Source: Candidatus Woesearchaeota archaeon
Lineage (GTDB): Archaea > Nanobdellota > Nanobdellia > Pacearchaeales > GW2011-AR1
Assembly: GCA_964472575.1 (NCBI GenBank)
Contig: CAYYLH010000001.1
Span: 1 to 42,638 of the forward strand
DNA length: 42,638 nucleotides
Direction: 5' to 3'
Under the pieces are notes generated by a model, which made no database searches, had not been told where the DNA came from, and saw only the letters and a list, made by a program, of their open reading frames with translations. Positions within the stretch are counted from its first letter, which is position 1. Each line of letters begins with the position of its first letter. The position numbers and the translations under genes are program-made. Positions 9,236 to 42,638 of this stretch are shown here, in pieces.

Positions 9236-9565
9236 TTACAAGTGTTGGCTAATCCATTGCTTAACATCTTCTTCTGTCTTAACACCAATAAACTCATCTA
9301 CTACCTTACCATCCTTAAATAACTTAACAGCAGGTATAGACATAATTCCATATTCACTTGCTTTTTCTTGGTTTTGCTCAACATTCAGTTTAGCAATTAC
9401 AACCTTGTCTTTCAATTCATCACTATTACCTACTTTTTCCATAATAGGCTTTAGCATTTGACACGGTCCACACCAAGAAGCCCAGAAATCTACTACTACA
9501 GGCATTTCTTTGCTTTTTTCTATAACTTCTTTTTCAAAGCCAGAGTCAGTTGTATCTATTTCCAT
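9236..9565 (-). CDS. trxA: Thioredoxin
   Basis: WCGPC active site in a thioredoxin-fold context (VVVDFWASWCGPCQMLKP). The track start at 9574 is TTG; the ATG at 9565 sits about 27 nt from the TTTATAAA box. Confidence 0.9.
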   Translation of the reverse strand: MEIDTTDSGFEKEVIEKSKEMPVVVDFWASWCGPCQMLKPIMEKVGNSDELKDKVVIAKLNVEQNQEKASEYGIMSIPAVKLFKDGKVVDEFIGVKTEEDVKQWISQHL

Positions 9566-9587
9566 AGTTAACAATAGTAAACAACTA

Positions 9588-9606: not shown

Positions 9607-9655
9607 CAGTGATAACTATCTCATTCTAATCATCAACAGTGATAACTATCTCATT
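9607..9655 (+). repeat. 19-nt direct repeat cagtgataactatctcatt, 2 copies, 30-bp period
   Basis: Identical copies at 9607-9625 and 9637-9655. Confidence 0.9.
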
Positions 9656-9849
9656 TCTTTGATGCATGTCAAGTGTAGAACTTTGTTCTACTAGCGTCTT
9701 TCTTTTTCTTTTTAACTGCTATAGTTCTTTTGTCTGTACATCTTTTCCTATTTTATTTCTTTGATGCGTGTCAAGTGTAGAACTTTGTTCTACTAGCGTC
9801 TCTCTCTTTCTTTTTAACTGCTATAGTTCTTTTGTCCGTACATCTTTTC
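9654..9849 (+). repeat. ~102-bp tandem repeat, 2 copies (9654-9747 and 9756-9849), each with a 7-bp-stem hairpin plus T-tract
   Basis: The unit tttctttgatgcRtgtcaagtgtagaactttgttctactagcgtc...aactgctatagttcttttgtcYgtacatcttttc was read twice. Hairpins GTAGAAC-ttt-GTTCTAC lie at 9675-9691 and 9777-9793. Confidence 0.9.
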
Positions 9850-9903: not shown

Positions 9904-11577
9904 ATGAAGTACAAAGAACTATGTGACCTATATGAAGAGCTAGAACAAACCTCTTCAAGCCTAGAAAAAACAACACAAATAGCTGAATTTCTAAAAAAAA
10001 TAAAATCCTCTCCAGACATAATCTACCTAATACAAGGAAGAATCTCTCCAGACTATAATAAAAATGAACTAGGAATATCAACCCAACTAGTAATAAAAGC
10101 AATTCAAAAAGCAGCAGGGATAAAAAAAGAACAAGTAATCAAATCATTCAAACAAACAGGAGACCTTGGAACAACAGCTGAAAATCTTTTAGAAAAAAAA
10201 CAACAATCATCACTATTTACACAAAAACTAACAGCTGAAAAAGTAATACAAAATCTTCAAAAACTTCCTACATTAGAAGGAAAAGGAACAATAGACAATA
10301 AAATCTCACTAATCTTAGAACTTCTAAACTCAACACCAAGACAGGCTAAATACATAATAAGAACAATTCTTTCAGATTTAAAAATAGGTGTAGGTTCTGG
10401 AATACTAAGAGATGCAATAGTAAAATACTGCTTTCCAGATAAAGATAAAAAAGAATATCAAGATAAAGTTCAACAAGCCTATGACAAGCTTCCAGACTTC
10501 TCACTGGTATTTGAAAAAGCTTGTAAAAACAAACTAAATGAAATAACACTATCACCTGGAAATCCAATAAAAGTAATGCTCTTTCCAAAAGCAAAAGATG
10601 TAGAAGATGCATTTAGAATTGTAGGAAAACCAGCTGCTTTTGAATATAAATACGATGGATTTAGACTAATGATAAATAAAGATAAATCAGGAAAGGTAAA
10701 ACTATTCACAAGAAGACTAGATAATGTAACTAATCAGTTTCCAGATGTAGTAAAAGCAGTTGAACATATAAAAGCAGACACATTTGTAATAGATTCAGAA
10801 GTAGTAGGTTATGACTCTAAAACAAAAAAATACAAACCCTTTCAATACATCTCTCAAAGAATTAAAAGAAAATATGACATAGATAAACTAGTTGAAAATC
10901 TTCCAGTAGAACTAATGGTTTTTGATATAATATACTATAATGGAAAATCACTAATACAAGAACCATTTGAAAAAAGAAGAAAACTTCTTGAAAAAATTAC
11001 AAAAGAAAAACCAATGACAATCAGACTAGCAGACCAAATAATCACAGATAATGAAAAAGAAGTAGAGAAATTCTATAAAAAAGCTTTAGATGAAGGACAA
11101 GAAGGATTAATGGGTAAAAACCTTCAAGCTAACTATAAACCAGGTTCAAGAATTGGACATGCAGTAAAACTAAAACCAGAAGATAATGATTTTGATTTAG
11201 TTATAACAGGTGCAGAATATGGAACAGGAAAAAGAGCAGGCTGGTTAACAAGTTTTGATGTCTCGTGTAAAGATGAAAATGAAGAACTCTTAGAAATAGG
11301 AAAAGTATCAACAGGATTAAAAGAAAAACAAGAACAAGGACTTTCATTTGAAGAGCTAACAAAAAAACTAAAACCACTAATCAATGAAGAACACGGAAAA
11401 CATATTCAAGTAAAACCAGAAATAATAGTTACTGTTCAGTATCAAAACATACAAACATCTCCTACTTATTCATCTGGCTATGCTTTAAGATTTCCAAGAA
11501 TTAAACAACTACGTCCTGACAGAGGTGTAGATGATATTGCTACTCTAAATGAAATTAAAAAAGAGGCAGAAAAATGA
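9904..11577 (+). CDS. lig: ATP-dependent DNA ligase
   Basis: Adenylation motif I AAFEYKYDGFR (KxDG), later ligase motifs (EGLMGK, AVKLKP), and C-terminal OB domain ending YALRFPRIKQLRPDR. Confidence 0.95.
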   Translation: MKYKELCDLYEELEQTSSSLEKTTQIAEFLKKIKSSPDIIYLIQGRISPDYNKNELGISTQLVIKAIQKAAGIKKEQVIKSFKQTGDLGTTAENLLEKKQQSSLFTQKLTAEKVIQNLQKLPTLEGKGTIDNKISLILELLNSTPRQAKYIIRTILSDLKIGVGSGILRDAIVKYCFPDKDKKEYQDKVQQAYDKLPDFSLVFEKACKNKLNEITLSPGNPIKVMLFPKAKDVEDAFRIVGKPAAFEYKYDGFRLMINKDKSGKVKLFTRRLDNVTNQFPDVVKAVEHIKADTFVIDSEVVGYDSKTKKYKPFQYISQRIKRKYDIDKLVENLPVELMVFDIIYYNGKSLIQEPFEKRRKLLEKITKEKPMTIRLADQIITDNEKEVEKFYKKALDEGQEGLMGKNLQANYKPGSRIGHAVKLKPEDNDFDLVITGAEYGTGKRAGWLTSFDVSCKDENEELLEIGKVSTGLKEKQEQGLSFEELTKKLKPLINEEHGKHIQVKPEIIVTVQYQNIQTSPTYSSGYALRFPRIKQLRPDRGVDDIATLNEIKKEAEK

Positions 11578-31258: not shown

Positions 31259-31693
31259 ATGTCAAACAAAAAAGGACAAGCAGCTATGGAATTCCTAATG
31301 ACTTATGGTTGGGCCATTCTTGCTGCTGTTATTGCTGTTGGTGCACTTTGGTGGTTAATGTCTAGCTCAGGTGGAACAGTAAGCTTTTGTAGTTTAAGTG
31401 CTCCACTATCTTGTGAAGAACAAACAGCTAATACTACATCAGTTATTGTAGTATTTAGAAATGGAGTTGGAGATTCAATTAATGTTACAAGTGTTAATAT
31501 GACTGGAGGATGTACTGCTATAACACCTAATGAAAATGTAGCAAATGGTGAAACATACACTGCTGTAGTAAGTTGTAGTGGATTAACTGTTGGAGATTCT
31601 GTACAAGAAGATCTAAGTGTTAAGTACATCAAATCAGGTGGAAGTTTACCACAAACATCAACAGGTACTGTATCTACAGAAGTAGTTGCTTAA
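31259..31693 (+). CDS. Archaeal type IV pilin (class III signal peptide, Q at +1; DUF361/Epd-like), likely major pilin
   Basis: MSNKKG|QAAMEFLMTYGWAILAAVIAVGALWW. The track start at 31094 is TTG in the promoter region; the ATG at 31259 has an SD. 4 Cys and 3 N-x-T sequons. Confidence 0.8.
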   Translation: MSNKKGQAAMEFLMTYGWAILAAVIAVGALWWLMSSSGGTVSFCSLSAPLSCEEQTANTTSVIVVFRNGVGDSINVTSVNMTGGCTAITPNENVANGETYTAVVSCSGLTVGDSVQEDLSVKYIKSGGSLPQTSTGTVSTEVVA

Positions 31694-31929: not shown

Positions 31930-32754
31930 CTAAATATCCAACTCACCAGAATAAGCCTTAGTAGAAATCTCAACACCAGACTTACCAATCTTAAAAGGAA
32001 ATATCTCTCTTGAATGCTCTGTTCCCCTCATCTTAATAATCTCTAAAAATCTCTCTCTTTCCTTTCCAGTTCTAACAAAATATAACACAATAATACTATC
32101 AGATTCAAACTCTAATGCCTTAGAACTAGCCTTACCATCCTTAGTAGGGTCTTCTTCATAAGTTAGTAAAGAAGTAGTATTCCACTTTCTCAACATTCCA
32201 AATAACTCTAAACCAGCCTCTCTCTTCTTCAAATCATCATCAAATAACAATTCAAAAGAAGTAATAGAATCAATAACAATTCTAGAAATCTTTTCTTTTA
32301 ATACAATACTCTCAATAATACCCCCACCCTCTTCAAGCATAGTCTTAACCTTCTCAGGTGTATACTCTAAAAACACAAAATTACCTTTTTTCTCTTCTTT
32401 TTCCAAATCAAAACCAAACTGCTTCATATTAGTATAAAAAACCTCTTTCTTTTCTTCAAAAGTAATATACAAACACTTTTCATTTTTCTTTAATCCATCA
32501 ACTAAAAACTCAATAGCAAAAATACTCTTACCACTTCCAGAACTACCTACAATCAAATTAATAGAATCCTTTTCAAATCCTCCTTGAATCAACTTATCAA
32601 AATTCTTAACACCAGTAGCAACCCTTTCAACCTTTCCAATCTTAGTCTTCTTCTTAGTTAAAATTTCTTCTAACTTATCTTCTTTCTTTCCAATCTTCTT
32701 AATAGCTTTTTTAGAATTCTTTTTAACACTCTTTTTAACCTTCTTTTTTACCAT
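31930..32754 (-). CDS. KaiC/RecA-superfamily ATPase (FlaH/ArlH-like) with K-rich N-terminus
   Basis: GVKNFDKLIQGGFEKDSINLIVGSSGSGKSIFAIEFL (Walker A), Walker B-like RIVIDSI, and KMRGTEHS. Confidence 0.8.
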   Translation of the reverse strand: MVKKKVKKSVKKNSKKAIKKIGKKEDKLEEILTKKKTKIGKVERVATGVKNFDKLIQGGFEKDSINLIVGSSGSGKSIFAIEFLVDGLKKNEKCLYITFEEKKEVFYTNMKQFGFDLEKEEKKGNFVFLEYTPEKVKTMLEEGGGIIESIVLKEKISRIVIDSITSFELLFDDDLKKREAGLELFGMLRKWNTTSLLTYEEDPTKDGKASSKALEFESDSIIVLYFVRTGKERERFLEIIKMRGTEHSREIFPFKIGKSGVEISTKAYSGELDI

Positions 32755-32792: not shown

Positions 32793-33707
32793 CTAAAAAA
32801 ATCCAGACATAAAATTCTGCAACACAACCCTGGTTAAAAAATAAACAATCATACTAATCACAACTAAGAAAGGCAAATACTTCAACCCTTGCTTCTCCTC
32901 ACCCTTAGCAACAAGACCTAAAACCAAAGAAGCAAGAACATCAATAGCCAAGATAAATACAACACTAAACCAAACTACAAAACTAACACTAATTCCAACA
33001 CCAGTCATAGAAAAAGGTAAATTAATAGCAGCATTAGACATATCAGGAACACCAACTAACAAGTCAGTCATAACACCAACTAAAACACCTGATAAAGAAA
33101 ATAACAAAGGAGCACCAGCAGCAACAGCTACAAAAATAAATATAACATACATTAAAACACTAGAAGCAGCCTTCTTCTCAACAAATCCTCTCTCCCTCAT
33201 ACCAGAAGCAGTCTGTTCAATTAAAACAGCAAGATTACCTCCAGCCTCAATACCAGAAATAATTAATAAAATAGTCTTTTCAATCTTATTACTTCCAATT
33301 CTATCAGCCATATCTAATAATGCCTCTTTAATCTTTCTACCAGTAGCAATATCCTTTCCAGTCTCTGTAATCTCTTTATCTAATGGGTCAAACTCCTTTC
33401 TAGCACTCAACAACATAGCTCTATCAATAGTCATACCAGCTCTAAGATTACTAGCCATTAATTGTAAAAAATCAGGAAAAACCTCTTCCATCTTACTAAT
33501 CCTAGCACTCTCTTTCAAAGCAGCACTAAAATACAAATACAACCAAGTCAAAACTATCAAACCTATAAAAATAACTAAACCTAAAATCCAATTACCACTA
33601 AAAAATATCAAAACACTACTAATCACAATACCAATTAAACCTGCAAGAATCAACCACTTCTTATACTTACCTTTCTCTTCTCTCTTTCTTCTTGATTTCA
33701 ACTTCAT
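32793..33707 (-). CDS. Type IV filament platform protein, single T2SSF domain (TadC/FlaJ C-half-like)
   Basis: FPDFLQLMASNLRAGMTIDRAMLLSA...ALLDMADRIGSNKIEKTILLIISGIEAGGNLAVLIEQTA flanked by TM helices. ATGA overlap with the upstream gene. Confidence 0.75.
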   Translation of the reverse strand: MKLKSRRKREEKGKYKKWLILAGLIGIVISSVLIFFSGNWILGLVIFIGLIVLTWLYLYFSAALKESARISKMEEVFPDFLQLMASNLRAGMTIDRAMLLSARKEFDPLDKEITETGKDIATGRKIKEALLDMADRIGSNKIEKTILLIISGIEAGGNLAVLIEQTASGMRERGFVEKKAASSVLMYVIFIFVAVAAGAPLLFSLSGVLVGVMTDLLVGVPDMSNAAINLPFSMTGVGISVSFVVWFSVVFILAIDVLASLVLGLVAKGEEKQGLKYLPFLVVISMIVYFLTRVVLQNFMSGFF

Positions 33708-34585
33708 AATAGTGATGGTCTCCTTGATTTAATTAAACCTAAGAACATAACCTGCATAAGCATAACCATAATAAACAAACCAATAAATACAAACTGAATC
33801 ATCCTACCTTCTAATCCTAATATAGAAGATAAAATAGTAATAAATGTAATAGCTAAAGCAGGAAGAATAACAGATATAAGCATATAAAACATAATCAAAG
33901 GATTCAATTTATTTCCATAATTCTGAATCTGAATCAACTGCTCTTCATGTAAAGCATGAATACTATCACTAATAACAATAGCCATATCACTACCTGCATT
34001 CATACCATTACTAATCTGCCACAAAGTCCTTCTAAAAAATACAGAAGGATTATTCTCACCTAAATCCTCTAATACCTCTTTCTCAGACTCACCAGCATTA
34101 ATTCTTTTAACAGCTTTTTTAAACTCAACACTTAACTGACCATAATCAGAAGATGAAATATTAACCATAACACTAAACAAAGGCACACCTGAATTAACCT
34201 GAATTAACATATCTTCTAAAGCAGGTAATAAATTCCTCTCAATATCTTTCTGTCTTCTAGAAACATAAATCCTAGGATAAACCAACTGAGAAAAAACAAT
34301 AAATCCAGAAAATAAAATAGCAATTACTAATCCAAATAAATAAAAAAATCCAACCCTTAAAAAAGCAAGAACAGTAGTAGAAAAAACTAATAATCCTAAA
34401 AAACTAATAAAAAAACTCCTCATTACAATAGAAAGATACTCCTCTCTTGTCAAAGAGATATTACTATTCTTCAGATTCTCTCCTAACTTGGTCTTAGACT
34501 TATGTTTAATTCTTTTTAAAAAATAATCACTCTTTCTTCTAAGCTTTTTATAATCTGAAAAAGTAAACGGAATCTTAAATTTCAT
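33704..34585 (-). CDS. Type IV filament platform protein, single T2SSF domain (TadB/FlaJ N-half-like)
   Basis: LPALEDMLIQVNSGVPLFSVMVNISSS...EVLEDLGENNPSVFFRRTLWQISNGMNAGSD with TM helices. TAATG overlap with the ATPase stop. Confidence 0.75.
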   Translation of the reverse strand: MKFKIPFTFSDYKKLRRKSDYFLKRIKHKSKTKLGENLKNSNISLTREEYLSIVMRSFFISFLGLLVFSTTVLAFLRVGFFYLFGLVIAILFSGFIVFSQLVYPRIYVSRRQKDIERNLLPALEDMLIQVNSGVPLFSVMVNISSSDYGQLSVEFKKAVKRINAGESEKEVLEDLGENNPSVFFRRTLWQISNGMNAGSDMAIVISDSIHALHEEQLIQIQNYGNKLNPLIMFYMLISVILPALAITFITILSSILGLEGRMIQFVFIGLFIMVMLMQVMFLGLIKSRRPSLL

Positions 34586-36336
34586 TATTCCCTCCCTAAT
34601 AACTCTTTTATATTATTTCCTTTCATCAACTTTCTTAATCTTTCAATACCAGTATAATAAACATTCATAATCTTTCCAAAATCATTAAAATCTCGAATCT
34701 TATTCTTAATCATCCACTCTAAAACAGATTTCTTTTCTTCTAAATTCTTTTTTAACTCTATTTCAGCTAAACCAGTATGTCTTTGTAAATCTTCAAAAAA
34801 TCTAGATGATTCAGCATGTCTTGCAATTCTATCTTCCTCAGGAACCCACCTATATAAAATATTAGCACTAGCACTATCATCTCCTGCTTCAAATTCTGCA
34901 ATCTGAAATACCCTTCTTATACCTCTTCTTCTATCTCTAAACATTACAACATTCAAATTAACAGCTCTTAACAAATTAGCAGGAATATTCAAAGGAGGAT
35001 TTGTCAACCTAGAAATAGTCTCAGCAGCAGAGTCAGCATGAAGAGTAGCATAAACACTATGACCAGTATGCATAGCTTCAAACAAAACCATTGCTTCTTG
35101 TTGTCTTCTCATCTCACCTAAGATAATTCTATCAGGCCTCATTCTTAAAGAATTAACTAATAAATCTAACATTGAAACCTCTCCTTTTCCTTCTGGATTA
35201 GGACTTCTAGTAACTAAAGGAGTCCAATATAAAAAATCAGGTAACATTAATTCTCTTGTATCTTCAACACTAACAATCCTATGATTAGGAGGAATAAAAG
35301 GCATACATGCATTTAACAATACAGTCTTTCCAGAAGCAGTTCCACCAGAAATAATAACATTCATCTCATACTCAATAGCTAACCATAATAAAACAGCTGA
35401 ATCAATATCACAAGTCTTATTTCCAATCAAATCAATAATAGTATATGGATCTCTTGCAAACTTTCTAATTGTAATTGTATTTCCTTTAGTAGAAACAGGA
35501 TATAAAATAGCATTAACCCTATCACCTGTAACTAAATGAGCATCTAACAAAGGAGTTAAAACAGTAATCTGTCTTCCTACTCTTCTAGCAACAATATTAG
35601 AATAATTAACAATCTCTTCTTCTTTTTTAATCCTTAGATTAGTTCTAATCCATCCAAACTTTTTATGATAAACTCTTATTGGTTCTTTAGAAGATGGAAT
35701 AACTACTTCTTCTAGTTCAGGGTCATTAACTAAAAACTCTATCTCTCCTAATCCTAACATATCTTGCATTAACTTTCCAACAAGATATTTCTTCATTTTT
35801 TCATCTAAATGAGGAAGCTTTTTATTCAAAAGTTTATTTGTCTCGCTCATAAACCTCTTTTTAATATCATTAAAAGCATGAGGGTCTAAAATCTCTTTCA
35901 TACTAACAGTAGTCATACTAACTAACTCAGCCCTAATATCTGATAATAAACACGCAGTTGCAATACCTATTTCAGGAACTAATAAATTATAACTAATCCC
36001 TGATTTATCCTTAACAACCTCTACTTTAATCACAGCACCATCTCTTTCCAAAGTACAAGTAGATAAAACTCCGTGAGGCAGATGTTTATGTTTCTTTTTA
36101 TTCTCTTTAATAGCCTTAGCATTAACAGCCTTATTAATATCAGATTTCATATCCTTACTAACTACAAAAGGCTTAGGCTTTGCTTTAACTATTCTAATCT
36201 CACTTCTTTGATTTTTTCTTTTTTCCTTTTTTCTTGTCTGTTTTTTGTCTCTTGCTCTTTTGTTTGTTGCCTTTCTTTTCTTTGTCTTCTTGCTTGTTGT
36301 TTTGTGTTTTTTGTTTTGTTTTATTTTCTTTTTCAT
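34585..36336 (-). CDS. Type IV filament assembly ATPase (FlaI/VirB11/TadA-type, T2SSE family); start uncertain
   Basis: Walker A ISGGTASGKT, DRIILGEMRRQQEA, and His box HTGHSVYATLHA. The first ~62 aa are polybasic and overlap the upstream ORF; an alternative ATG lies at 36150 (MKSDINKAV). Confidence 0.9.
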   Translation of the reverse strand: MKKKIKQNKKHKTTSKKTKKRKATNKRARDKKQTRKKEKRKNQRSEIRIVKAKPKPFVVSKDMKSDINKAVNAKAIKENKKKHKHLPHGVLSTCTLERDGAVIKVEVVKDKSGISYNLLVPEIGIATACLLSDIRAELVSMTTVSMKEILDPHAFNDIKKRFMSETNKLLNKKLPHLDEKMKKYLVGKLMQDMLGLGEIEFLVNDPELEEVVIPSSKEPIRVYHKKFGWIRTNLRIKKEEEIVNYSNIVARRVGRQITVLTPLLDAHLVTGDRVNAILYPVSTKGNTITIRKFARDPYTIIDLIGNKTCDIDSAVLLWLAIEYEMNVIISGGTASGKTVLLNACMPFIPPNHRIVSVEDTRELMLPDFLYWTPLVTRSPNPEGKGEVSMLDLLVNSLRMRPDRIILGEMRRQQEAMVLFEAMHTGHSVYATLHADSAAETISRLTNPPLNIPANLLRAVNLNVVMFRDRRRGIRRVFQIAEFEAGDDSASANILYRWVPEEDRIARHAESSRFFEDLQRHTGLAEIELKKNLEEKKSVLEWMIKNKIRDFNDFGKIMNVYYTGIERLRKLMKGNNIKELLGRE

Positions 36337-36931
36337 CTACCTCTTTTTTACCTCCTTTTTTATTTAAACTATCTCCTTCATCACAACTCTTTTCATTTTT
36401 ATCTTCTTCACCTTTCTCATTTTTATGTTTTTCTTTTAAAGTTAAAACAGGTTCTCCAAATCCAGGATAATCAATCATAGCAAGATTACTAGACTCTAAA
36501 ATTCCTGCCCACTCCATAGCTAAATCTTTAGAGATTTTAAATTTCTTTTCAATTGTACTAATCTTTATCTTTTTAGTTTGTTTTAAAATCTCATACAAAG
36601 TATCTATATCAGTAGTTGCATGTTTTTGAATCTTTTCAAAATCAATCCCAACCAATTCATTTTTTTTATTTTTAACACCCTTATCTTTAAAATACACAAT
36701 AAATAAAGCTAGTAATAATAAAATCCACTCAGCAATAATCAATCCCTTAGATAAAGGAGAAAGACTATTCTTAGCATTAATAATTACATCTTTAATAGAA
36801 TTTCCAGTCAAACCATTACTAAAACTAAATCTCACACCAAACCTATAAGCATACAATCCAGTACTAACTAAAAATAAAAAGAATACAATTAAGAAAACTC
36901 TAAAAAAAACTGGTTTTTCCTCTTTTACCAT
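36200..36931 (-). CDS. Membrane-anchored winged-helix-like protein with K/E-rich tail
   Basis: Two TM helices (FFRVFLIVFFLFLVSTGLYAY; IIAEWILLLLALFIVYF), then a wHTH-like TLYEILKQTKKIKISTIEKKFKISKDLAMEWAGILESSNLAMIDY. First gene of the minus-strand pilus operon. Confidence 0.55.
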   Translation of the reverse strand: MVKEEKPVFFRVFLIVFFLFLVSTGLYAYRFGVRFSFSNGLTGNSIKDVIINAKNSLSPLSKGLIIAEWILLLLALFIVYFKDKGVKNKKNELVGIDFEKIQKHATTDIDTLYEILKQTKKIKISTIEKKFKISKDLAMEWAGILESSNLAMIDYPGFGEPVLTLKEKHKNEKGEEDKNEKSCDEGDSLNKKGGKKEVDEKENKTKQKTQNNKQEDKEKKGNKQKSKRQKTDKKKGKKKKSKK

Positions 36932-37005: not shown

Positions 37006-37428
37006 ATGAAACAGAAAAACAAAGCACAAATTGGAATGGAATATCTTATTGTAGTTGGTTTTGTAACCTTTATTATAATAGGAATAATGGGGCTTGCAAT
37101 GGTCTATACAGGAGTAATAAAAGATAGAATTAGAAGCAACAAAATCAACTCATTTGCAGACAAAATAATCTCTACATCAGAATCAGTCTACTATAAAGGA
37201 AGTCCATCAAAAGCAACAATAGAAACCTATCTACCTGAAAATGTAAACCAAATAACAATACAAGATAATAGTTTAGTAATTAATAGTTCTACTAGTTCTG
37301 GAGATAACCTAGTTGCATTTGAAAGTAATGTTCCTATTCAATTACAAGGAGAAATAAATCCAAATCCAGGGGTAAAGAATATTCTTATAACAGCAAATGA
37401 AAACACTATCACACTCTCACAAACATAA
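37006..37428 (+). CDS. Pilin-like protein (class III signal peptide, Q at +1)
   Basis: MKQKNKA|QIGMEYLIVVGFVTFIIIGIMGLAMV. Confidence 0.75.
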   Translation: MKQKNKAQIGMEYLIVVGFVTFIIIGIMGLAMVYTGVIKDRIRSNKINSFADKIISTSESVYYKGSPSKATIETYLPENVNQITIQDNSLVINSSTSSGDNLVAFESNVPIQLQGEINPNPGVKNILITANENTITLSQT

Positions 37429-37822
37429 AAAAGCACAAGCAGCTATTGAATTTTTAATTATAACAGGTTTTGCTTTATTCTTTTTTGCCACATTCCTAAT
37501 TACTATTCAAGCTTCAAACTCTGAAAAAACACAAGAAAAACAAGCACTACTAGTAAAGAATCTAGCTAAATCAATACAAGACGAACTAACACTAGCACAA
37601 GAAGCAAGTAATGGATATCAAAGAACATTTACACTGCCTGAAAAATTAGGAAGTTTAGAATATACAGCACAAGTAATAGAACAATCAGTCTATATAACTG
37701 CTCAAGATGAAAAATACGCAATCTCACTTCCAGCTCCTAGAATACAAGGACAACTAAACAAACCAGGAGACAATACAATCAAAAAAATAAATTCAACAAT
37801 CTATCTAAATGAAAACCCATAA
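37397..37822 (+). CDS. Pilin-like protein (class III signal peptide, Q at +1)
   Basis: ...HKHKKA|QAAIEFLIITGFALFFFATFLI. 32-nt overlap with the previous gene. Confidence 0.7.
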   Translation: MKTLSHSHKHKKAQAAIEFLIITGFALFFFATFLITIQASNSEKTQEKQALLVKNLAKSIQDELTLAQEASNGYQRTFTLPEKLGSLEYTAQVIEQSVYITAQDEKYAISLPAPRIQGQLNKPGDNTIKKINSTIYLNENP

Positions 37823-38312
37823 TAAATCAAACAAAGCACAAACATGGGGGATAGACCTTGTAATAGCAATGACAATATTCTCAATAGCAATTATTATCTT
37901 TTTTTTATATTCAATTAATTTTGCAGGTTATGAAACAACAGAATTCAAATCACTAGACTATGATGCAGAAATAATAGCAGACTCTATACTATCTCCAGGA
38001 AGCCCTGAAAACTGGACAACAGATAGTGTAGTAATTCCAGGAATTCTAACAAACAATCAAATCAATCAAACAAAACTAGATAATCTTAAAACACTAACAT
38101 CTACACAAGAAAACTATCAAACAACTAGATTAAAATTCTCTACTAAGTATGATTTTTACTTTTTTTTAAAAGACTCTCCTAATAATGGAATAGGAAAACC
38201 AAATACAGACCCAGAAACAATAGCAGATGAAAAAGAAAATCTAGTTAAGATTACAAGATTTACAATCTATGAAAATAAACCTAAAACAGTCTACCTATAC
38301 CTATGGGATTAG
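37809..38312 (+). CDS. Pilin-like protein (class III signal peptide, Q at +1)
   Basis: MKTHNKSNKA|QTWGIDLVIAMTIFSIAIIIFFL. 14-nt overlap with the previous gene. Confidence 0.65.
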   Translation: MKTHNKSNKAQTWGIDLVIAMTIFSIAIIIFFLYSINFAGYETTEFKSLDYDAEIIADSILSPGSPENWTTDSVVIPGILTNNQINQTKLDNLKTLTSTQENYQTTRLKFSTKYDFYFFLKDSPNNGIGKPNTDPETIADEKENLVKITRFTIYENKPKTVYLYLWD

Positions 38313-38331
38313 ATTAAAAATTATAACTAAA

Positions 38332-40959
38332 ATGAAAATATTAAAAAATAAAAAAGCAATATTCTTTTCAACAGATGCACTAGTAGCACTCTTTATAATC
38401 ATGATGACACTACTAGTTGTATATATCTCTATAAATGCAGGACAAAAAAATACTCAACTAGAATCAGATACACTAAAAGTAATGTCAGAACTAAAAATAA
38501 ATAATATTGATAATTCTTATGTCCAATCACTAATTAGTCAAGGAGAAATAACAAACCCAAATAACTCAATACTAGAACAAATAGGAGAGTTTTATATTAA
38601 TGAATCAATAGAATCTCAAACAATGGCTAGTGCATTAGCAGAACAAATACTAGATGAACTAGACACAAATGAAAATATAGGAATATGGTATGGAACTGAT
38701 TTAATTGCTTCTAAAAACTCAACACCAATAGATAATGCACAAGAAATAATTCTATCATCACAAACAATTACAGGACTGCAAAAAGGAGAAAGTGCTAAAG
38801 GATACTCATCAAGAGCATATCTATCAAAAGCAGATAATGTACAATACTACTATTTTGGAGGTTATATTGGTGATGGAAATATCTCAATGCAAATACAAGC
38901 ACCAGGAGAAGTTATAGATATGGAATTTGAAATCGCAATAAATAATGACTATGATTTATATATTAATAATCAATTCTCAGGACACTATGAAAAATCACAA
39001 GATGAATACACACCTCAAACCTATTTACCAGAATATGAATCTAACTTTCAAACAGGAACTAATCTAATTGAATTTAAATCTTCTAATAACCTATACATAG
39101 CAGGAGGATATCTAAAACTAACATTTAATTCTTCATCAGATATAAGTTCAAATAAAAAATACAATTTTATGGGAATAGATGGCTTAATAAATATCTATGA
39201 TGGAATTTATATTCCAGAAGAACTAACATCTATGAATGTCTTTCTAAACTACACCTCTAATGTAAATATGTTTCTAAATATTGCAAATAAAACAATATTT
39301 AATGAATCATCAGAAACACAAACACAAGAAACAATTACTAATTCAGAAATCCAATCAAAACTAAACTATGAAGATTTAACAGGAAAAACAGTTCCAATTA
39401 GATTAGGTTTAGAACAAGTTCAACAACAAGGAACAGGAGGAGGTATTGCAGATATTGTATTTGTAATTGACTCAACAGGAAGTATGGGTGATGAAATTCA
39501 AGATGTATATACAATTGCAGAAGACTTTGCAGACGAACTAGTAACACAAGATATTGATTATAGGTTAGGAATTATTGAATTTAAAGACTATCCTAAGAGT
39601 AGCTGTGGTAATACAGGATGTGATTATGGTTGGGGTGGTTGGTCTTGTTGTTTATCTAATGATTGTTCAATCCCTTCTGTATGTGAATCTTGTGGAGGAA
39701 CCTATAATGAAGATAATGCAGATTTTCCTTCTAAAATTCATTTATTTAATTCAAACGAATTTACAACCTCTTCTATTGATTTTAAAACTAAAATAAATAC
39801 TCTTACAGCATCTGGTGGAGCAGACTGGCCAGAGTCACATCTAACAGCTATTAATGATTCTATATATCTAAATTGGAGAGAGAATTCTAAAAAAGTAATA
39901 ATTGTTTTAACAGATGCACAGCCTCATGCAAAAGATTGTTATATTTATGATTCAGATACTTATGAATCTTGTTATGAAGGCCCAGAATATATCCAAGATG
40001 TAATTGAAGATTTAGTAACTAATGATATAACTTCTTATTATGTTTCAAAAGACACAACAGGAAGTTCAGGAGGCCTTTGTGATAACAGACCTATGGCAGA
40101 CAATATGACAAATGAAACAGGAGGAAAATTCTATGCTTATACAGAATCTCAAGGTGTTCAAGATATAATAATAGACATAGGAAGAGAAATAGTAGAAGTA
40201 ACCTATGCAGAACAAACAGCAACATCAATAGGAGATATCTATTCTTATCTATCACCAACATCTTATATAGAACTAAACTATAATAATCCAACAAACCCCT
40301 ATGGATTAGTAATAACCCTAGAAAGTGAAAACTTCAATTCTTCTGGAAGTCTAAATCTAACACTTCCAGAAAATGCAACATTTTTAGAAGCAACAACTAC
40401 TTCTTATTCAGGCCCAAGATGGACAAAAACCCTTACAATTAATAATCAAGAAGAATTTAATATAGAAGCTTATGGAAATGATTACATAGAACTAGGAGAC
40501 CCTTTTAATATACAAATACCTAACTCAACAGCGATACAAAAATCAAGTATAATTCAATTACTAACAGGAACCTCTCCTGCTGACAGCTATCCAATCTCAA
40601 CAGCTAGTAAGATAATATATAAAATAATAAAATCATTCCAAGCTTACTCACCTGTTGTATCAAAAGCACAAGGATGTGAATGGAACATCTCATTAGAAAA
40701 TAATGAAATAATACAAATTAACACACCTTCAACATATACAGGAAATAATAAATGTTCTTTCACTCCTGAAAATATAATCTATGATGTTAATGATGCAATA
40801 CAAACATCTGTATATAACTTACTAGAAAAATTAGATTTTAATAACAATAATAAAATTGACTTTTCAATCTCATCTCAAAACCTTCAGTTTGACTCAACAG
40901 AACTTTCAGGCATTCCTTATACTTATGAAACAGAAATACAAGTAAGAATATGGAGATGA
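38332..40959 (+). CDS. Large pilin-like protein with vWA/MIDAS domain carrying a Cys-rich insert; putative tip adhesin
   Basis: The ATG at 38332 gives MKILKNKKAIFFSTDALVALFIIMMTLLVVYI. MIDAS DSTGS (39469-39483), ASGGADWPES and IIVLTDAQPH. Insert SSCGNTGCDYGWGGWSCCLSNDCSIPSVCESCGG (~39598-39700). Many N-x-S/T sequons. Confidence 0.8.
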   Translation: MKILKNKKAIFFSTDALVALFIIMMTLLVVYISINAGQKNTQLESDTLKVMSELKINNIDNSYVQSLISQGEITNPNNSILEQIGEFYINESIESQTMASALAEQILDELDTNENIGIWYGTDLIASKNSTPIDNAQEIILSSQTITGLQKGESAKGYSSRAYLSKADNVQYYYFGGYIGDGNISMQIQAPGEVIDMEFEIAINNDYDLYINNQFSGHYEKSQDEYTPQTYLPEYESNFQTGTNLIEFKSSNNLYIAGGYLKLTFNSSSDISSNKKYNFMGIDGLINIYDGIYIPEELTSMNVFLNYTSNVNMFLNIANKTIFNESSETQTQETITNSEIQSKLNYEDLTGKTVPIRLGLEQVQQQGTGGGIADIVFVIDSTGSMGDEIQDVYTIAEDFADELVTQDIDYRLGIIEFKDYPKSSCGNTGCDYGWGGWSCCLSNDCSIPSVCESCGGTYNEDNADFPSKIHLFNSNEFTTSSIDFKTKINTLTASGGADWPESHLTAINDSIYLNWRENSKKVIIVLTDAQPHAKDCYIYDSDTYESCYEGPEYIQDVIEDLVTNDITSYYVSKDTTGSSGGLCDNRPMADNMTNETGGKFYAYTESQGVQDIIIDIGREIVEVTYAEQTATSIGDIYSYLSPTSYIELNYNNPTNPYGLVITLESENFNSSGSLNLTLPENATFLEATTTSYSGPRWTKTLTINNQEEFNIEAYGNDYIELGDPFNIQIPNSTAIQKSSIIQLLTGTSPADSYPISTASKIIYKIIKSFQAYSPVVSKAQGCEWNISLENNEIIQINTPSTYTGNNKCSFTPENIIYDVNDAIQTSVYNLLEKLDFNNNNKIDFSISSQNLQFDSTELSGIPYTYETEIQVRIWR

Positions 40960-41099: not shown

Positions 41100-42011
41100 A
41101 TGAAAATAAATAAAAAATCAAAAAAAGCACAAATATTCACTGTCCTGACTATAGCAATCATAGCCTTATTCTTTATCTCATATGAAGTCTACTCAATACT
41201 ACAAACACAATCAAATCTAAAAGACAGGGTGCTCTCAATAGATAGTTTTGTATTCTCCTTAGAACAAGACCTAAATAGAAAACTCTATGCATTTGGATTT
41301 AGAACAATATTTTTAGCAGAAGACTATCTAACCCAAACAGGAGGTTATATTCAAAACTTCTCTGAACTAACACAAGAGGCCTTTTTTAATGGAACAATTA
41401 ATAATCAAGAATCACAAATCCTAGCAGGAGTGTATTATGATGATTTAATACAAACAATAAATCAAAAATCAGAAAAGATAAATGCTAATGTAAATATAAC
41501 TAATACAGAAATTAAAGTCTATCAAACAAATCCTTGGCAAATTACATTTGAATTCTCATTCAACCTATTAGTAGAAGATAAATCCCAACTAGCTAAATGG
41601 GATAAACAAGAACTCATTATAACTAACATTCCCATCACAGGATTTGAAGACCCTTTATACACAATTAATACAAACTCTTTAGTAACCAATACAATCAATC
41701 AAACAATCTACACACTTCCTACTTCAAATACAGACACACTACTAAATCACACAGAACAAGGATTATACATAGCATCTACATCAGCTCCTAACTTTATACA
41801 AAGACTAGAAGGAAATTTAACACCAAATTCAAATGGAATAACCTCCTTAGTTTACATTCCAAGTCTAACACAACAAGGAATAACATCACAAGATAAATCT
41901 ATTCAGGACTATATTTACTTCTCAGATGAAAATCCAACATCTTCACAAGTATCAGGCATGCCTTCTTGGTTCTATTTAGATGATGATAGTGTTAGTAATT
42001 ATGTTAGTTAA
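41100..42011 (+). CDS. Pilin-like protein (class III signal peptide, Q at +1), 303 aa
   Basis: MKINKKSKKA|QIFTVLTIAIIALFFISYEV. Sequon-rich (NFS, NGT, NIT, NQT, NHT, NLT). Confidence 0.65.
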   Translation: MKINKKSKKAQIFTVLTIAIIALFFISYEVYSILQTQSNLKDRVLSIDSFVFSLEQDLNRKLYAFGFRTIFLAEDYLTQTGGYIQNFSELTQEAFFNGTINNQESQILAGVYYDDLIQTINQKSEKINANVNITNTEIKVYQTNPWQITFEFSFNLLVEDKSQLAKWDKQELIITNIPITGFEDPLYTINTNSLVTNTINQTIYTLPTSNTDTLLNHTEQGLYIASTSAPNFIQRLEGNLTPNSNGITSLVYIPSLTQQGITSQDKSIQDYIYFSDENPTSSQVSGMPSWFYLDDDSVSNYVS

Positions 42012-42278: not shown

Positions 42279-42638
42279 TTACTTCTTCCTTCTCCTTCCA
42301 CTCCTCTTCCTCTTATAAAATAAATAAACTAAAAATCCAAGAATTACTAAAACTAAAATAATTATAATTATAATAAGGATATTAAAAACAAAACAAGAAA
42401 TCCTAAGATATGCAAAATCTCCACCAAAAAACCAAAAAGAAAAATTAAAGATTCTTGCTAAATAACCTATTAAAGAAATTAAAATAAGAGAACATCCAAC
42501 AACTAGTAATAAATTCCACCAATCAATTCTATCTAAAAAGTCTTTTCTAATTCTTTTTATAATCTTCTTAAGTTTAATCTTACTTATAATCTTCTTAAGT
42601 TTAATCTTACTTATAATCTTCTTAAGTTTAATCTTACT
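42279..42638 (-). CDS. Partial hypothetical membrane protein (5' end outside the window) with 9-aa tandem repeats
   Basis: Open minus-strand frame from the window edge to the stop at 42279-42281 (...YKRKRSGRRRKK*). Hydrophobic segments. The N-terminal visible part is SKIKLKKII x3. Confidence 0.4.
   Translation of the reverse strand, partial: SKIKLKKIISKIKLKKIISKIKLKKIIKRIRKDFLDRIDWWNLLLVVGCSLILISLIGYLARIFNFSFWFFGGDFAYLRISCFVFNILIIIIIILVLVILGFLVYLFYKRKRSGRRRKK
42561..42638. repeat. 27-bp tandem repeat aatcttcttaagtttaatcttacttat, 2 full copies plus 1 truncated by the window end
   Basis: Identical units at 42561-42587, 42588-42614 and 42615-42638. The period is a multiple of 3. Confidence 0.9.

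Follow-up and report, generated by a model that had tools for sequence, protein, structure and literature searches.

The 42,638-nucleotide stretch of DNA analysed here (contig CAYYLH010000001.1 of a Candidatus Woesearchaeota archaeon, hereafter the window) encodes an 875-aa protein which, in our judgement, is probably a large, modular and adhesive type IV pilus subunit of a DPANN archaeon of the Woesearchaeota/Pacearchaeota group. The protein begins with a putative class III (prepilin-type) signal and a hydrophobic helix, and its centre is occupied by a von Willebrand factor A (vWA) domain whose sequence and predicted structure identify it as integrin-beta type, with Glu in place of the MIDAS Thr (MIDAS, metal ion-dependent adhesion site). 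Little is known about the means by which DPANN archaea, which are ultra-small and depend on hosts, locate a host and stay attached to it, and Woesearchaeota/Pacearchaeota lineages have yet to be cultivated; the protein family described here, on which no paper was found in the searchable literature, is a concrete and widely conserved candidate for host recognition in these organisms.

The integrin-beta character of the vWA domain is apparent both in profile searches and in the predicted structure. The VWA profile search proposed in an earlier note on this DNA, which had been made from the sequence alone, returned Pfam VWA_4 (1e-10) and VWA (8e-8) together with Integrin_beta (4.8e-7; 30.2 bits for a cut-off of 24.8), all above their cut-offs, the last over profile positions 88-149 of 248 only. 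The vWA match is split into two pieces (aa 374-422 and 476-535), so that there is a real insertion inside the domain. In the AlphaFold model of the full-length protein (91-sequence alignment; predicted local distance difference test, pLDDT, 83.2; predicted template modelling score, pTM, 0.64), strands betaA (372-380), betaB (409-417), betaD (520-527), betaE (566-573) and betaF (600-603) are found with helices between them, and the fold, as modelled, is complete. The concern that the Cys-rich stretch might be a disordered linker outside a broken vWA fold is not borne out, as the split Pfam match, the alignments and the model place the insert within the domain, as an excursion of a loop expected on the MIDAS side. 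When this model was compared with the PDB using Foldseek, the top 50 matches were all integrin beta chains (E 6e-11 to 4e-9). A sequence profile of the 14 closest homologs (profile A1) matched integrins beta8, beta6 and beta3 at 6e-9 to 1e-5, collagen VI over a short stretch (1.3e-7, with no single stretch significant) and, in two weak matches outside the vWA core, lectins; no other protein type was matched by A1 in the PDB at E <= 0.1. A second profile (A2), dominated by the majority subfamily, matched instead the BatA-like 4rck (1.7e-13), Mfa5 (2e-8) and RrgA (2.5e-4). The likeness to integrin that the earlier note had suggested looking for was thereby found, on the beta chain, whereas its other two suggested relatives fared less well: Pfam returned no TadE/TadG-like N-terminal domain at E <= 0.1 and no PilY1 C-terminal beta-propeller, the C-terminal part being modelled as beta-sandwich-like domains.

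An intact MIDAS had been read from the loop at 39469-39483, from ASGGADWPES (39808-39837) and from LTDA (39907-39918). All three motifs are present, and the D380 loop and D528 stand as MIDAS elements; the loop, however, is of the form D-x-T-x-S and not D-x-S-x-S, and ASGGADWPES lacks the MIDAS Thr, its place being taken by E501. Across 120 homologs, Thr is counted at this column in 95, and about 105 belong to the classical Thr type (e.g. 'GGTCICCGI', 'MSDG'); about 15, the window protein included, read S-G-G-x-D-x-P-E-S-H-L and align E501 to the same column. The Asp corresponding to D528 is shared by 115 of the 120. Within the integrin-type subfamily the D, T, G and S of the MIDAS loop are invariant (14 members), as are D380, T382, S384, D419, D498, P500, E501 and D528. 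E388 is at least 90% conserved and D387 is variable. The profile A1 alignment, combined with the numbering of integrin beta3, leads us to take D380, T382 and S384 as the equivalents of D119, S121 and S123, E501 as that of E220, D528 as that of D251, D387/E388 as those of D126/D127, D419 as that of D158 in the synergistic metal-binding site (SyMBS), and D498 and P500 as those of D217 and P219. We would expect a divalent cation to be held at a MIDAS composed of D380, T382, S384, E501 and D528.

The 34-residue insert is flanked by strands betaB (YRLGIIEFK) and betaC (KIHLF) and is closely preceded by the invariant C425, at a position that we term site 1. In the HMMER alignment it falls exactly where integrin beta8 carries its Cys-containing specificity-determining loop, and by this alignment the insert occupies the position of a known ligand-specificity element. 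Relative to the gene for the homolog P0002 (locus L003; 84% nucleotide and 78% amino acid identity), the window gene contains a single 102-nt in-frame insertion (aa 429-462). P0002 in turn has 57 + 21 extra nt at a second position, site 2, after H-A-K-D-C, which give it a Cys-rich 34-aa loop where that of the window is minimal (12 aa), and the two genes differ by exactly these two in-frame indels. The Cys-rich insertion within the vWA domain described in the earlier note is confirmed by the split Pfam match, by the exact indel (39616-39717) and by the Cys positions themselves: the protein contains 12 Cys (425, 430, 439, 440, 445, 451, 454, 536, 547, 583, 782 and 808), six in the inserted segment, four invariant in the vWA domain and two invariant in the C-terminal domain, and 7 of the 12 fall inside 30 residues, a clustering that did not occur once in 200,000 random placements.

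When 57 full vWA units were aligned to a profile of the integrin-beta-like type, site 1 (after profile state 62) was the sole internal site with large insertions, ranging from 0 to 349 aa. The insertion measures 34 aa in the window protein, 82 aa in P0005, 283 and 287 aa in P0086 and P0137 (which belong to the same long family and locus type), and 328-349 aa in three short pilin-like proteins. P0005, which is 46% identical, is the only other aligned integrin-beta-like vWA protein with a Cys knot at site 1, and there the motif C-D-Y-x-CC-x-C-x-C-E-[SI]-C is found in two tandem copies; the large inserts at this site are beta domains poor in Cys, for which Pfam offers no more than a weak match to DUF4082. 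Wherever site 1 carries an insert, in seven proteins, the site-2 loop is minimal (9-15 aa, one Cys), and all 12 long-family members that lack such an insert have a site 2 of 17-40 aa with 3-6 Cys. The behaviour of site 1 as the main hotspot for large indels fits that of a specificity element.

A six-Cys module of the same kind is present in relatives with a classical vWA domain, albeit in a different loop. In many of these the pattern C-x5-8-CC-x4-7-C-x5-6-C-x2-C-[GS]-G-[TV]-[WY] follows directly after D-x-S-G-S-M, in the betaA-alpha1 loop, and its strict form is found in at least 26 of about 105 classical relatives; examples are ECTGGGFFCCWFQQDCSTQAGCSACGGTY in P0088 and DCSGSSPFYCCWFNDCSSASGCSSCGGTL in P0020, to be compared with GCDYGWGGWSCCLSNDCSIPSVCESCGGTY in the window. 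A hidden Markov model (HMM) of 26 such knots scores the window insert at 19.3 bits, the maximum over 2000 shuffles of the same composition being 16.0, and in a whole-protein search it scores the window at 13.5 bits against no more than 4.2 in 400 shuffled proteins. These comparisons indicate that the same six-Cys module sits in two different loops of two vWA types, both of which would be expected on the MIDAS face from general vWA topology and the integrin precedent. The earlier note had not recognised the insert from characterised vWA proteins. It indeed has no Pfam family, a weak adenylate kinase lid match on its CxxC aside, and no PDB sequence match, and the proposed metagenome search, carried out on JGI data with 8-mer peptides of the insert, returned no further copy; it is not unique, however, given the module in the other MIDAS-side loop of its relatives. 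The loop after the MIDAS D-x-S-G-S-M is itself hypervariable in classical-vWA members (P0016, P0020, P0088 and others, aa ~380-415), which have no insert, the six-Cys knot, a ~30-aa two-Cys loop (MNSD..G..R.C.DP.L...TKR.S.AKC) or longer multi-Cys forms. In P0141 (aa ~225-556), a full second vWA of the classical type (LDTSRSM ... LLTDGQDS) is nested at site 2 of an integrin-type vWA.

Variation in the family extends beyond loops to the vWA core as a whole. The window protein is 52% identical to its integrin-type relatives over the N-terminal region (1-365), 54% over the vWA domain and 46% over the C-terminal region (630-875); for classical relatives the corresponding values are 47%, 20% and 41%. 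P0009, P0010, P0012 and P0013 share 67-68% identity with the classical P0088 in their flanks and 17-19% in their vWA cores, and P0086, whose flanks are no more than 39% identical to any sequence, has a vWA core 61% identical to that of P0005. In a crude neighbour-joining (NJ) tree of the flanks, which carries no support values, integrin-type proteins fall into eight separate groups. Flank relatedness is thus decoupled from vWA relatedness, a case that we base on the pairwise identity contrasts more than on the tree. In variants of 1000-1500 aa, residues 1-~385 and ~595-875 are retained and the differences are confined to the part between them, which in some cases carries Laminin_G_3, BNR or sialidase Pfam families. 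Going by these sequence comparisons, the N- and C-terminal parts act as conserved scaffolds, and the vWA core held by them behaves as a cassette that can be swapped. As to its origin, a word search with the vWA domain alone returned nine proteins, none from the full-length family, and brought to light short proteins of ~340-420 aa that have a class III signal, a vWA of the type seen in the window protein (37-44% identity) and archaeal pilin-like leaders (KRG/LSNIIVVV, KKG/VSNIIT; here and below the slash marks the putative cleavage site), and proteins of this kind are a plausible source of the integrin-type module. A separate short family (P0121-P0125, P0148 and P0151; ~340-420 aa, up to 834 aa with inserts) shares pilin-like leaders, an integrin-beta-like vWA and a conserved C-terminal domain of ~70 aa, and the gene for P0125 adjoins a KaiC-like gene. 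An exhaustive profile search retrieved 13,590 cluster representatives at E <= 1e-3, 80 of them at E <= 1e-30.

The link to pili begins with the N-terminus. The mechanical open reading frame (ORF) runs from 38269 to 40959 (+) and encodes 896 aa, a product for which there is no exact database record, so that its context is taken from homologs, whose cluster names are uninformative. An ATG at 38332 gives the 875-aa product with the N-terminus MKILKNKKA/IFFSTDALVALFIIMM. This ATG sits 20 nt downstream of the stop of the preceding ORF, and homologs all open with a short basic leader followed by [KR]-[AG]-[VIM]-[FY]-F-S-x-D-A-[LI]-I-A; the spacing and the shared leader together make it the better start, in agreement with the ~875-aa, pilin-like protein that the earlier note had begun at 38332. 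Leader and helix read MKILKNKKA/IFFSTDALVALFIIMMTLLVVYISI, and the same pattern is present in 91 homologs and in five neighbouring proteins. Among the 91 homologs F12, S13, D15 and A16 are invariant or nearly so, D15 strictly. We would accordingly expect prepilin peptidase to cleave after K-K-A.

Beyond the leader, the full-length model consists of a helix (14-36), a helical subdomain (43-108), a beta-sandwich (115-360), the vWA domain (372-624) and beta domains (638-875). Segments of low confidence are 1-9, 365-369, 422-442 (pLDDT ~50 up to ~465) and 537-546, which take in both variable loops. The ~370 residues before the vWA domain had been described as sequon-rich sequence of the beta type; the description suits ~115-360, but residues 43-108 are modelled as helical, and the 16 sequons counted, for 13.8 +/- 3.3 expected from composition, amount to no enrichment.

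The genetic setting is that of a pilus locus. Five genes with class III signals form a tight operon in which the vWA gene comes fourth and the first three overlap or abut each other, and a sixth N-terminus of this type is found at the locus; the operon adjoins a T2SSE ATPase gene, two T2SSF/TadC genes and a KaiC-like gene (Table 1). A KaiC-family ATPase is typical of archaeal type IV pilus loci (PMC4858521). All five operon genes have orthologs in the four loci compared (L001, L003, L004 and L005; 35-88% identity) and the gene order is the same in L087, such that the arrangement is kept in five other loci, distant ones included; the ATPase and TadC genes are adjacent in four of these five. The gene for the 303-aa protein lies downstream of the vWA gene in all loci compared, directly or, in L004, one small gene later, and its profile found no match in the PDB. 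Scanning one genome per GTDB species located relatives of the vWA protein in at least 273 species genomes, nearly all of them titled Woesearchaeota, Pacearchaeota or Nanoarchaeia; the names attached to homologs are Pacearchaeota, Woesearchaeota or Nanoarchaeota. Family members were also seen in bins titled Methanosarcinales and Elusimicrobia (L058 and L077); since these contigs are short, the occurrences are most likely binning errors and not true presence outside DPANN.

From these observations we can outline how the protein might act. A prepilin peptidase would remove the short basic leader after K-K-A, and the hydrophobic helix would allow the protein to join the four other class-III-signal proteins of the operon in a priming or tip complex, which the ATPase and TadC platform would then extrude on a filament built from the separate major pilin. 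The ~840 globular residues beyond the helix would place the protein at the tip rather than in the shaft. There, the integrin-beta-like vWA may hold a divalent cation at its MIDAS, with an acidic group of the ligand completing the coordination, and specificity would be set by the MIDAS-face loops at site 1 (betaB-betaC) and site 2 (after betaD), the former bearing in the window strain the presumed 34-aa six-Cys knot. Diversification would proceed by exchange of the knot, of larger domains or of the whole vWA core between conserved scaffolds, exchanges by which, as we read them, the protein may be redirected to other host surfaces. What the analysis shows is the architecture, the motifs, the gene context, the distribution of the family and the patterns of indels and cassettes; processing of the leader, assembly, location at the tip, binding of metal, the ligand and the targeting of hosts are steps that we infer. 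A broader proposal, to which we attach only a low probability, is that DPANN archaea of the Woesearchaeota/Pacearchaeota group operate a pilus-tip host-recognition cassette system, in which fixed scaffolds present an exchangeable vWA of the classical or betaI type and a small, mobile six-Cys knot, grafted into one MIDAS-side loop or another, retunes specificity. If this were true, integrin-beta-type metal-dependent binding, complete with an equivalent of the specificity loop, would already have served cell-cell adhesion in archaea, and cassette type should track host identity. The specificity region is an obvious one, such that cassette type could be followed against co-occurring hosts in metagenomes and tested biochemically.

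Among experimentally characterised proteins the closest analogue is PilB of Streptococcus sanguinis, a fusion of pilin and vWA with two arms flanking a metal-binding MIDAS, which is modelled at the pilus tip and binds host proteins (PMC8179133). The two have in common a class III signal, a hydrophobic helix followed by a vWA domain with a MIDAS (read from sequence in the archaeal protein), MIDAS-flanking loops or 'arms', genes alongside those of other type IV pilins, and a proposed role as tip adhesin. PilB, however, comes from a bacterium, has two modules, and combines a canonical pilin fold with a MIDAS of the classical Thr type, whereas the archaeal protein has a helical subdomain, a beta-sandwich of the jelly-roll kind, C-terminal beta domains that span ~240 aa, and a vWA of integrin-beta type. 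As neither PilB nor pilin chains appeared in any PDB sequence search, the likeness is one of analogy and not of demonstrated homology. Were it upheld, the 'modular pilin' idea would extend from bacterial PilB to archaea.

To the integrin betaI domain, which provides the best structural and profile matches, the resemblance extends to D-x-[ST]-x-S-M, a conserved acidic residue at what would be the position of the adjacent metal ion-dependent adhesion site (ADMIDAS), D-x-P-E with its Glu as presumed MIDAS ligand, D419 at the putative D158 (SyMBS) position, the Cys-containing insertion at the position of the specificity-determining loop and a second long loop after betaD. Unlike integrin beta, the archaeal protein has no Pfam PSI or EGF domain, no C-terminal transmembrane (TM) helix or tail and a Gly at the N215 equivalent, and is anchored by an N-terminal pilin-like helix; Pfam PSI, EGF and FG-GAP had no match in it or in the neighbours scanned, and no alpha-subunit beta-propeller partner is present in the locus. 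The domain is betaI-like, but this does not make the protein an integrin. Among prokaryotes, domains resembling integrin beta have been described in Trichodesmium (PMC3192720) and in CglD of Myxococcus xanthus, a beta-integrin-like surface adhesin (bioRxiv 10.1101/2023.10.19.562135), and to these few carriers archaeal pilus proteins would be added. CglD, which is the only NCBIfam model to match (E 2e-4, far below its cut-off), is likewise a prokaryotic surface protein with an integrin-beta-like vWA, many Cys (disulfide-bonded in CglD) and a role in adhesion, but CglD belongs to the gliding machinery as a lipoprotein of the outer membrane, and has COMP- and EGF-like repeats, a MIDAS assigned a Thr, and no link to pili. 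TadG of Tad/Flp pili and PilY1/PilC of type IVa pili are also large vWA proteins, whose genes accompany those of minor (pseudo)pilins in type IV filament systems and which have been linked with adhesion or anchoring; they are bacterial families, however, and PilY1 is itself no pilin. RrgA, GBS104 and Mfa5, which are found at the tips of sortase or type V pili, possess a vWA with inserted arms around the MIDAS, but their pilus assembly chemistry is unrelated and the vWA type of the window protein gives no match to them. In Nanoarchaeota, elevated non-synonymous variation has been described for surface proteins and a pilus platform gene (PMC6142677).

A number of results weigh against the protein being an adhesive pilus subunit with the insert as its recognition element. 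A separate model of aa 1-365 was weaker (pLDDT 72.8) than the full-length model; with it, Foldseek retrieved jelly-roll sugar-binding domains of glycoside hydrolase family 2 (GH2) enzymes and CBM36 at weak E values of 4e-5 to 1e-3, and no pilin or archaellin was present in the top 50. The likeness to pilins is as such confined to the signal and helix, and of the minor-pilin/vWA complex that the earlier note had postulated the operon context is upheld but a pilin fold after the helix is not. None of the six class-III-signal proteins is matched by a pilin model of Pfam or NCBIfam, and the scanned ORFs of the window include no gene recognised as a prepilin peptidase. G496 lies where we take N215 of the integrin beta3 SyMBS to be, and the Asn is not conserved. 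Regarding the insert, AlphaFold modelled it with low confidence (pLDDT ~44-53), a value that neither supports nor refutes a folded knot, and the close ortholog P0002 is without it, from which it would follow that the insert is dispensable for the basic role of the protein; the earlier suggestion that it acts as a recognition element draws on its location at an indel hotspot and specificity-loop position, and is tempered by this dispensability. Lastly, the proposed check for selection yielded ratios of non-synonymous to synonymous substitution (dN/dS; Nei-Gojobori, against the 84%-identical P0002) of 0.15 for the N-terminal region, 0.23 for the vWA domain and 0.12 for the C-terminal region. The vWA domain evolves faster than its flanks, yet all regions are under purifying selection (dN/dS < 1), and there is no domain-wide positive selection.

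Other explanations for the protein can be envisaged. It may be held in the membrane by its N-terminal helix as a cell-surface adhesin or pilus-base component, away from the pilus tip, in a manner resembling the anchoring role proposed for TadG or the archaeal class-III-signal proteins that function outside pili. The absence of a pilin-like fold after the helix is in keeping with this, and with ~840 residues after the helix the protein greatly exceeds what one would look for in a filament subunit. Pilus tips can nonetheless accommodate large modular pilins, PilB being one (PMC8179133), the gene stands among four small pilin-like genes with the same cleavage-site pattern in an arrangement kept in distant genomes, and the invariant F12, S13, D15 and A16 suggest specific helix packing and not a generic anchor; we regard such anchoring as rather unlikely. 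Less probable still is a function of the vWA domain in assembling or regulating the pilus (through priming, control by calcium or binding of a machine component, as discussed for PilY1) and not in binding an external ligand, with variable loops that mirror co-evolution with partner pilins. Strict linkage with the minor-pilin set and the downstream ~300-aa protein would agree with an assembly function, as would purifying selection in all domains. Site-1 domains of 280-350 aa, Laminin_G_3, BNR and sialidase modules and exchange of vWA type are, however, typical of outward-facing binding proteins, and such insertions and exchanges are hard to square with an internal partner that is conserved, given that the genes for the candidate partners vary little in comparison (35-88% identity).

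With an adhesive pilus subunit retained as the preferred reading, the chemistry of its insert may also be viewed in two ways. It is possible, though we are inclined to doubt it, that the six Cys together with C425 bind metal, as a Zn knuckle or Fe-S-like site, and do not form three disulfides. The insert contains a CxxC (C451-E-S-C454) and an adjacent CC pair, the CxxC has a weak Pfam match to a zinc-binding adenylate kinase lid (E 0.027), and metal binding would fit an organism of anoxic water or sediment; Woesearchaeota/Pacearchaeota lineages are commonly found in anoxic habitats. Against this, the integrin loop at the same position is disulfide-bonded, and the total of 12 Cys, being even, is what pairing into disulfides outside the cell would lead one to expect. 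One further candidate, an ArnB-type cytoplasmic regulator of pilus or archaellum expression, was considered since the survey of archaeal type IV pili by Makarova et al. (2016) discusses vWA proteins only as such regulators and as bacterial TadG (PMC4858521). It is effectively refuted by the architecture, namely the N-terminal signal/anchor helix, twelve Cys, beta-sandwich domains and integrin-like, extracellular-type vWA, and none of the FHA, kinase and MoxR partner genes is present in the locus.

Table 1. Coordinates in the window of the vWA protein, its parts and the neighbouring pilus-related genes
Feature	Position	Strand	Basis
Class-III-signal / beta-sandwich / integrin-beta-like vWA / C-terminal beta-domain protein, 875 aa	38332..40959	+	
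Basic leader (M1-A9, putative prepilin-peptidase site K-K-A/I) and hydrophobic helix, aa 10-36	38332..38439	+	
N-terminal beta-sandwich, aa ~115-360, after helical subdomain aa 43-108	38674..39411	+	
vWA domain, integrin-beta (betaI)-like, aa 372-624	39445..40203	+	
MIDAS loop 1, D380-S-T382-G-S384, then M-G-D387-E388 (ADMIDAS-like position)	39469..39483	+	
Six-Cys insert, 34 aa, aa 429-462 (GCDYGWGGWSCCLSNDCSIPSVCESCGGTYNEDN), between betaB and betaC, site 1	39616..39717	+	
D498-W-P500-E501, integrin-beta-type D-x-P-E, E501 in MIDAS Thr position	39823..39834	+	
MIDAS Asp D528, end of strand betaD (LTDA)	39913..39915	+	
Site 2 loop, C536-C547, minimal in the window (12 aa)	39937..39972	+	
Conserved C-terminal beta domains, aa ~638-875 (invariant SYSG-x-x-WT, GD, C782, C808)	40243..40956	+	
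Minor-pilin-like gene 1 (KA/QIGMEY, Glu at +5)	37006..37428	+	
Minor-pilin-like gene 2 (KA/QAAIEF; weak DUF7266 match)	37397..37822	+	
Minor-pilin-like gene 3 (KA/QTWGIDL)	37809..38312	+	
Class-III-signal protein, 303 aa (KKA/QIFTVL)	41100..42011	+	
T2SSE-family pilus assembly ATPase	34585..36336	-	Pfam
T2SSF/TadC-like platform protein 1	33704..34585	-	Pfam
T2SSF/TadC-like platform protein 2	32793..33707	-	Pfam
KaiC-family ATPase	31930..32754	-	Pfam
Candidate major pilin, 144 aa, stand-alone (MSNKKG/QAAMEFLMTYGW)	31259..31693	+	

The remaining observations concern the locus and the window at large. The putative mature N-termini contain an acidic residue in most cases: the major pilin and the products of minor-pilin-like genes 1 and 2 have a Glu at +5, and that of minor-pilin-like gene 3 and the vWA protein have an Asp at +6 (window 38359-38379), with none in the 303-aa protein. 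The ATPase ORF (34585-36336, -) shares 137 nt, Lys-rich in both frames, with an ORF that is itself TM/Lys-rich (36200-36931, -) and has a partial homolog in L005 (38% identity); translation of the ATPase probably begins downstream of 36336. In L004 (124-5264), upstream of the pilin operon, four paralogs with near-identical N-termini (MTILNQIGDRGDWKRIHYDKDLIARINREAEE...) surround a 578-aa gene, in what looks like a repeated gene family. The window as a whole has a G+C content of ~30% and encodes TBP, MCM, the ribosomal proteins L15e and L31e, an ATP-dependent DNA ligase and FtsZ, a gene content that marks it as archaeal. A perfect tandem repeat (27 bp x 3, 42557-42638) runs past its 3' end, inside a minus-strand ORF that leaves the window and encodes SKIKLKKII three times, followed by a hydrophobic, membrane-like stretch. 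A second tandem repeat (102 bp x 2, 94% matches) lies at 9646-9849, between an ORF at 9236-9574 (-) and the DNA ligase gene (9904-11577, +).

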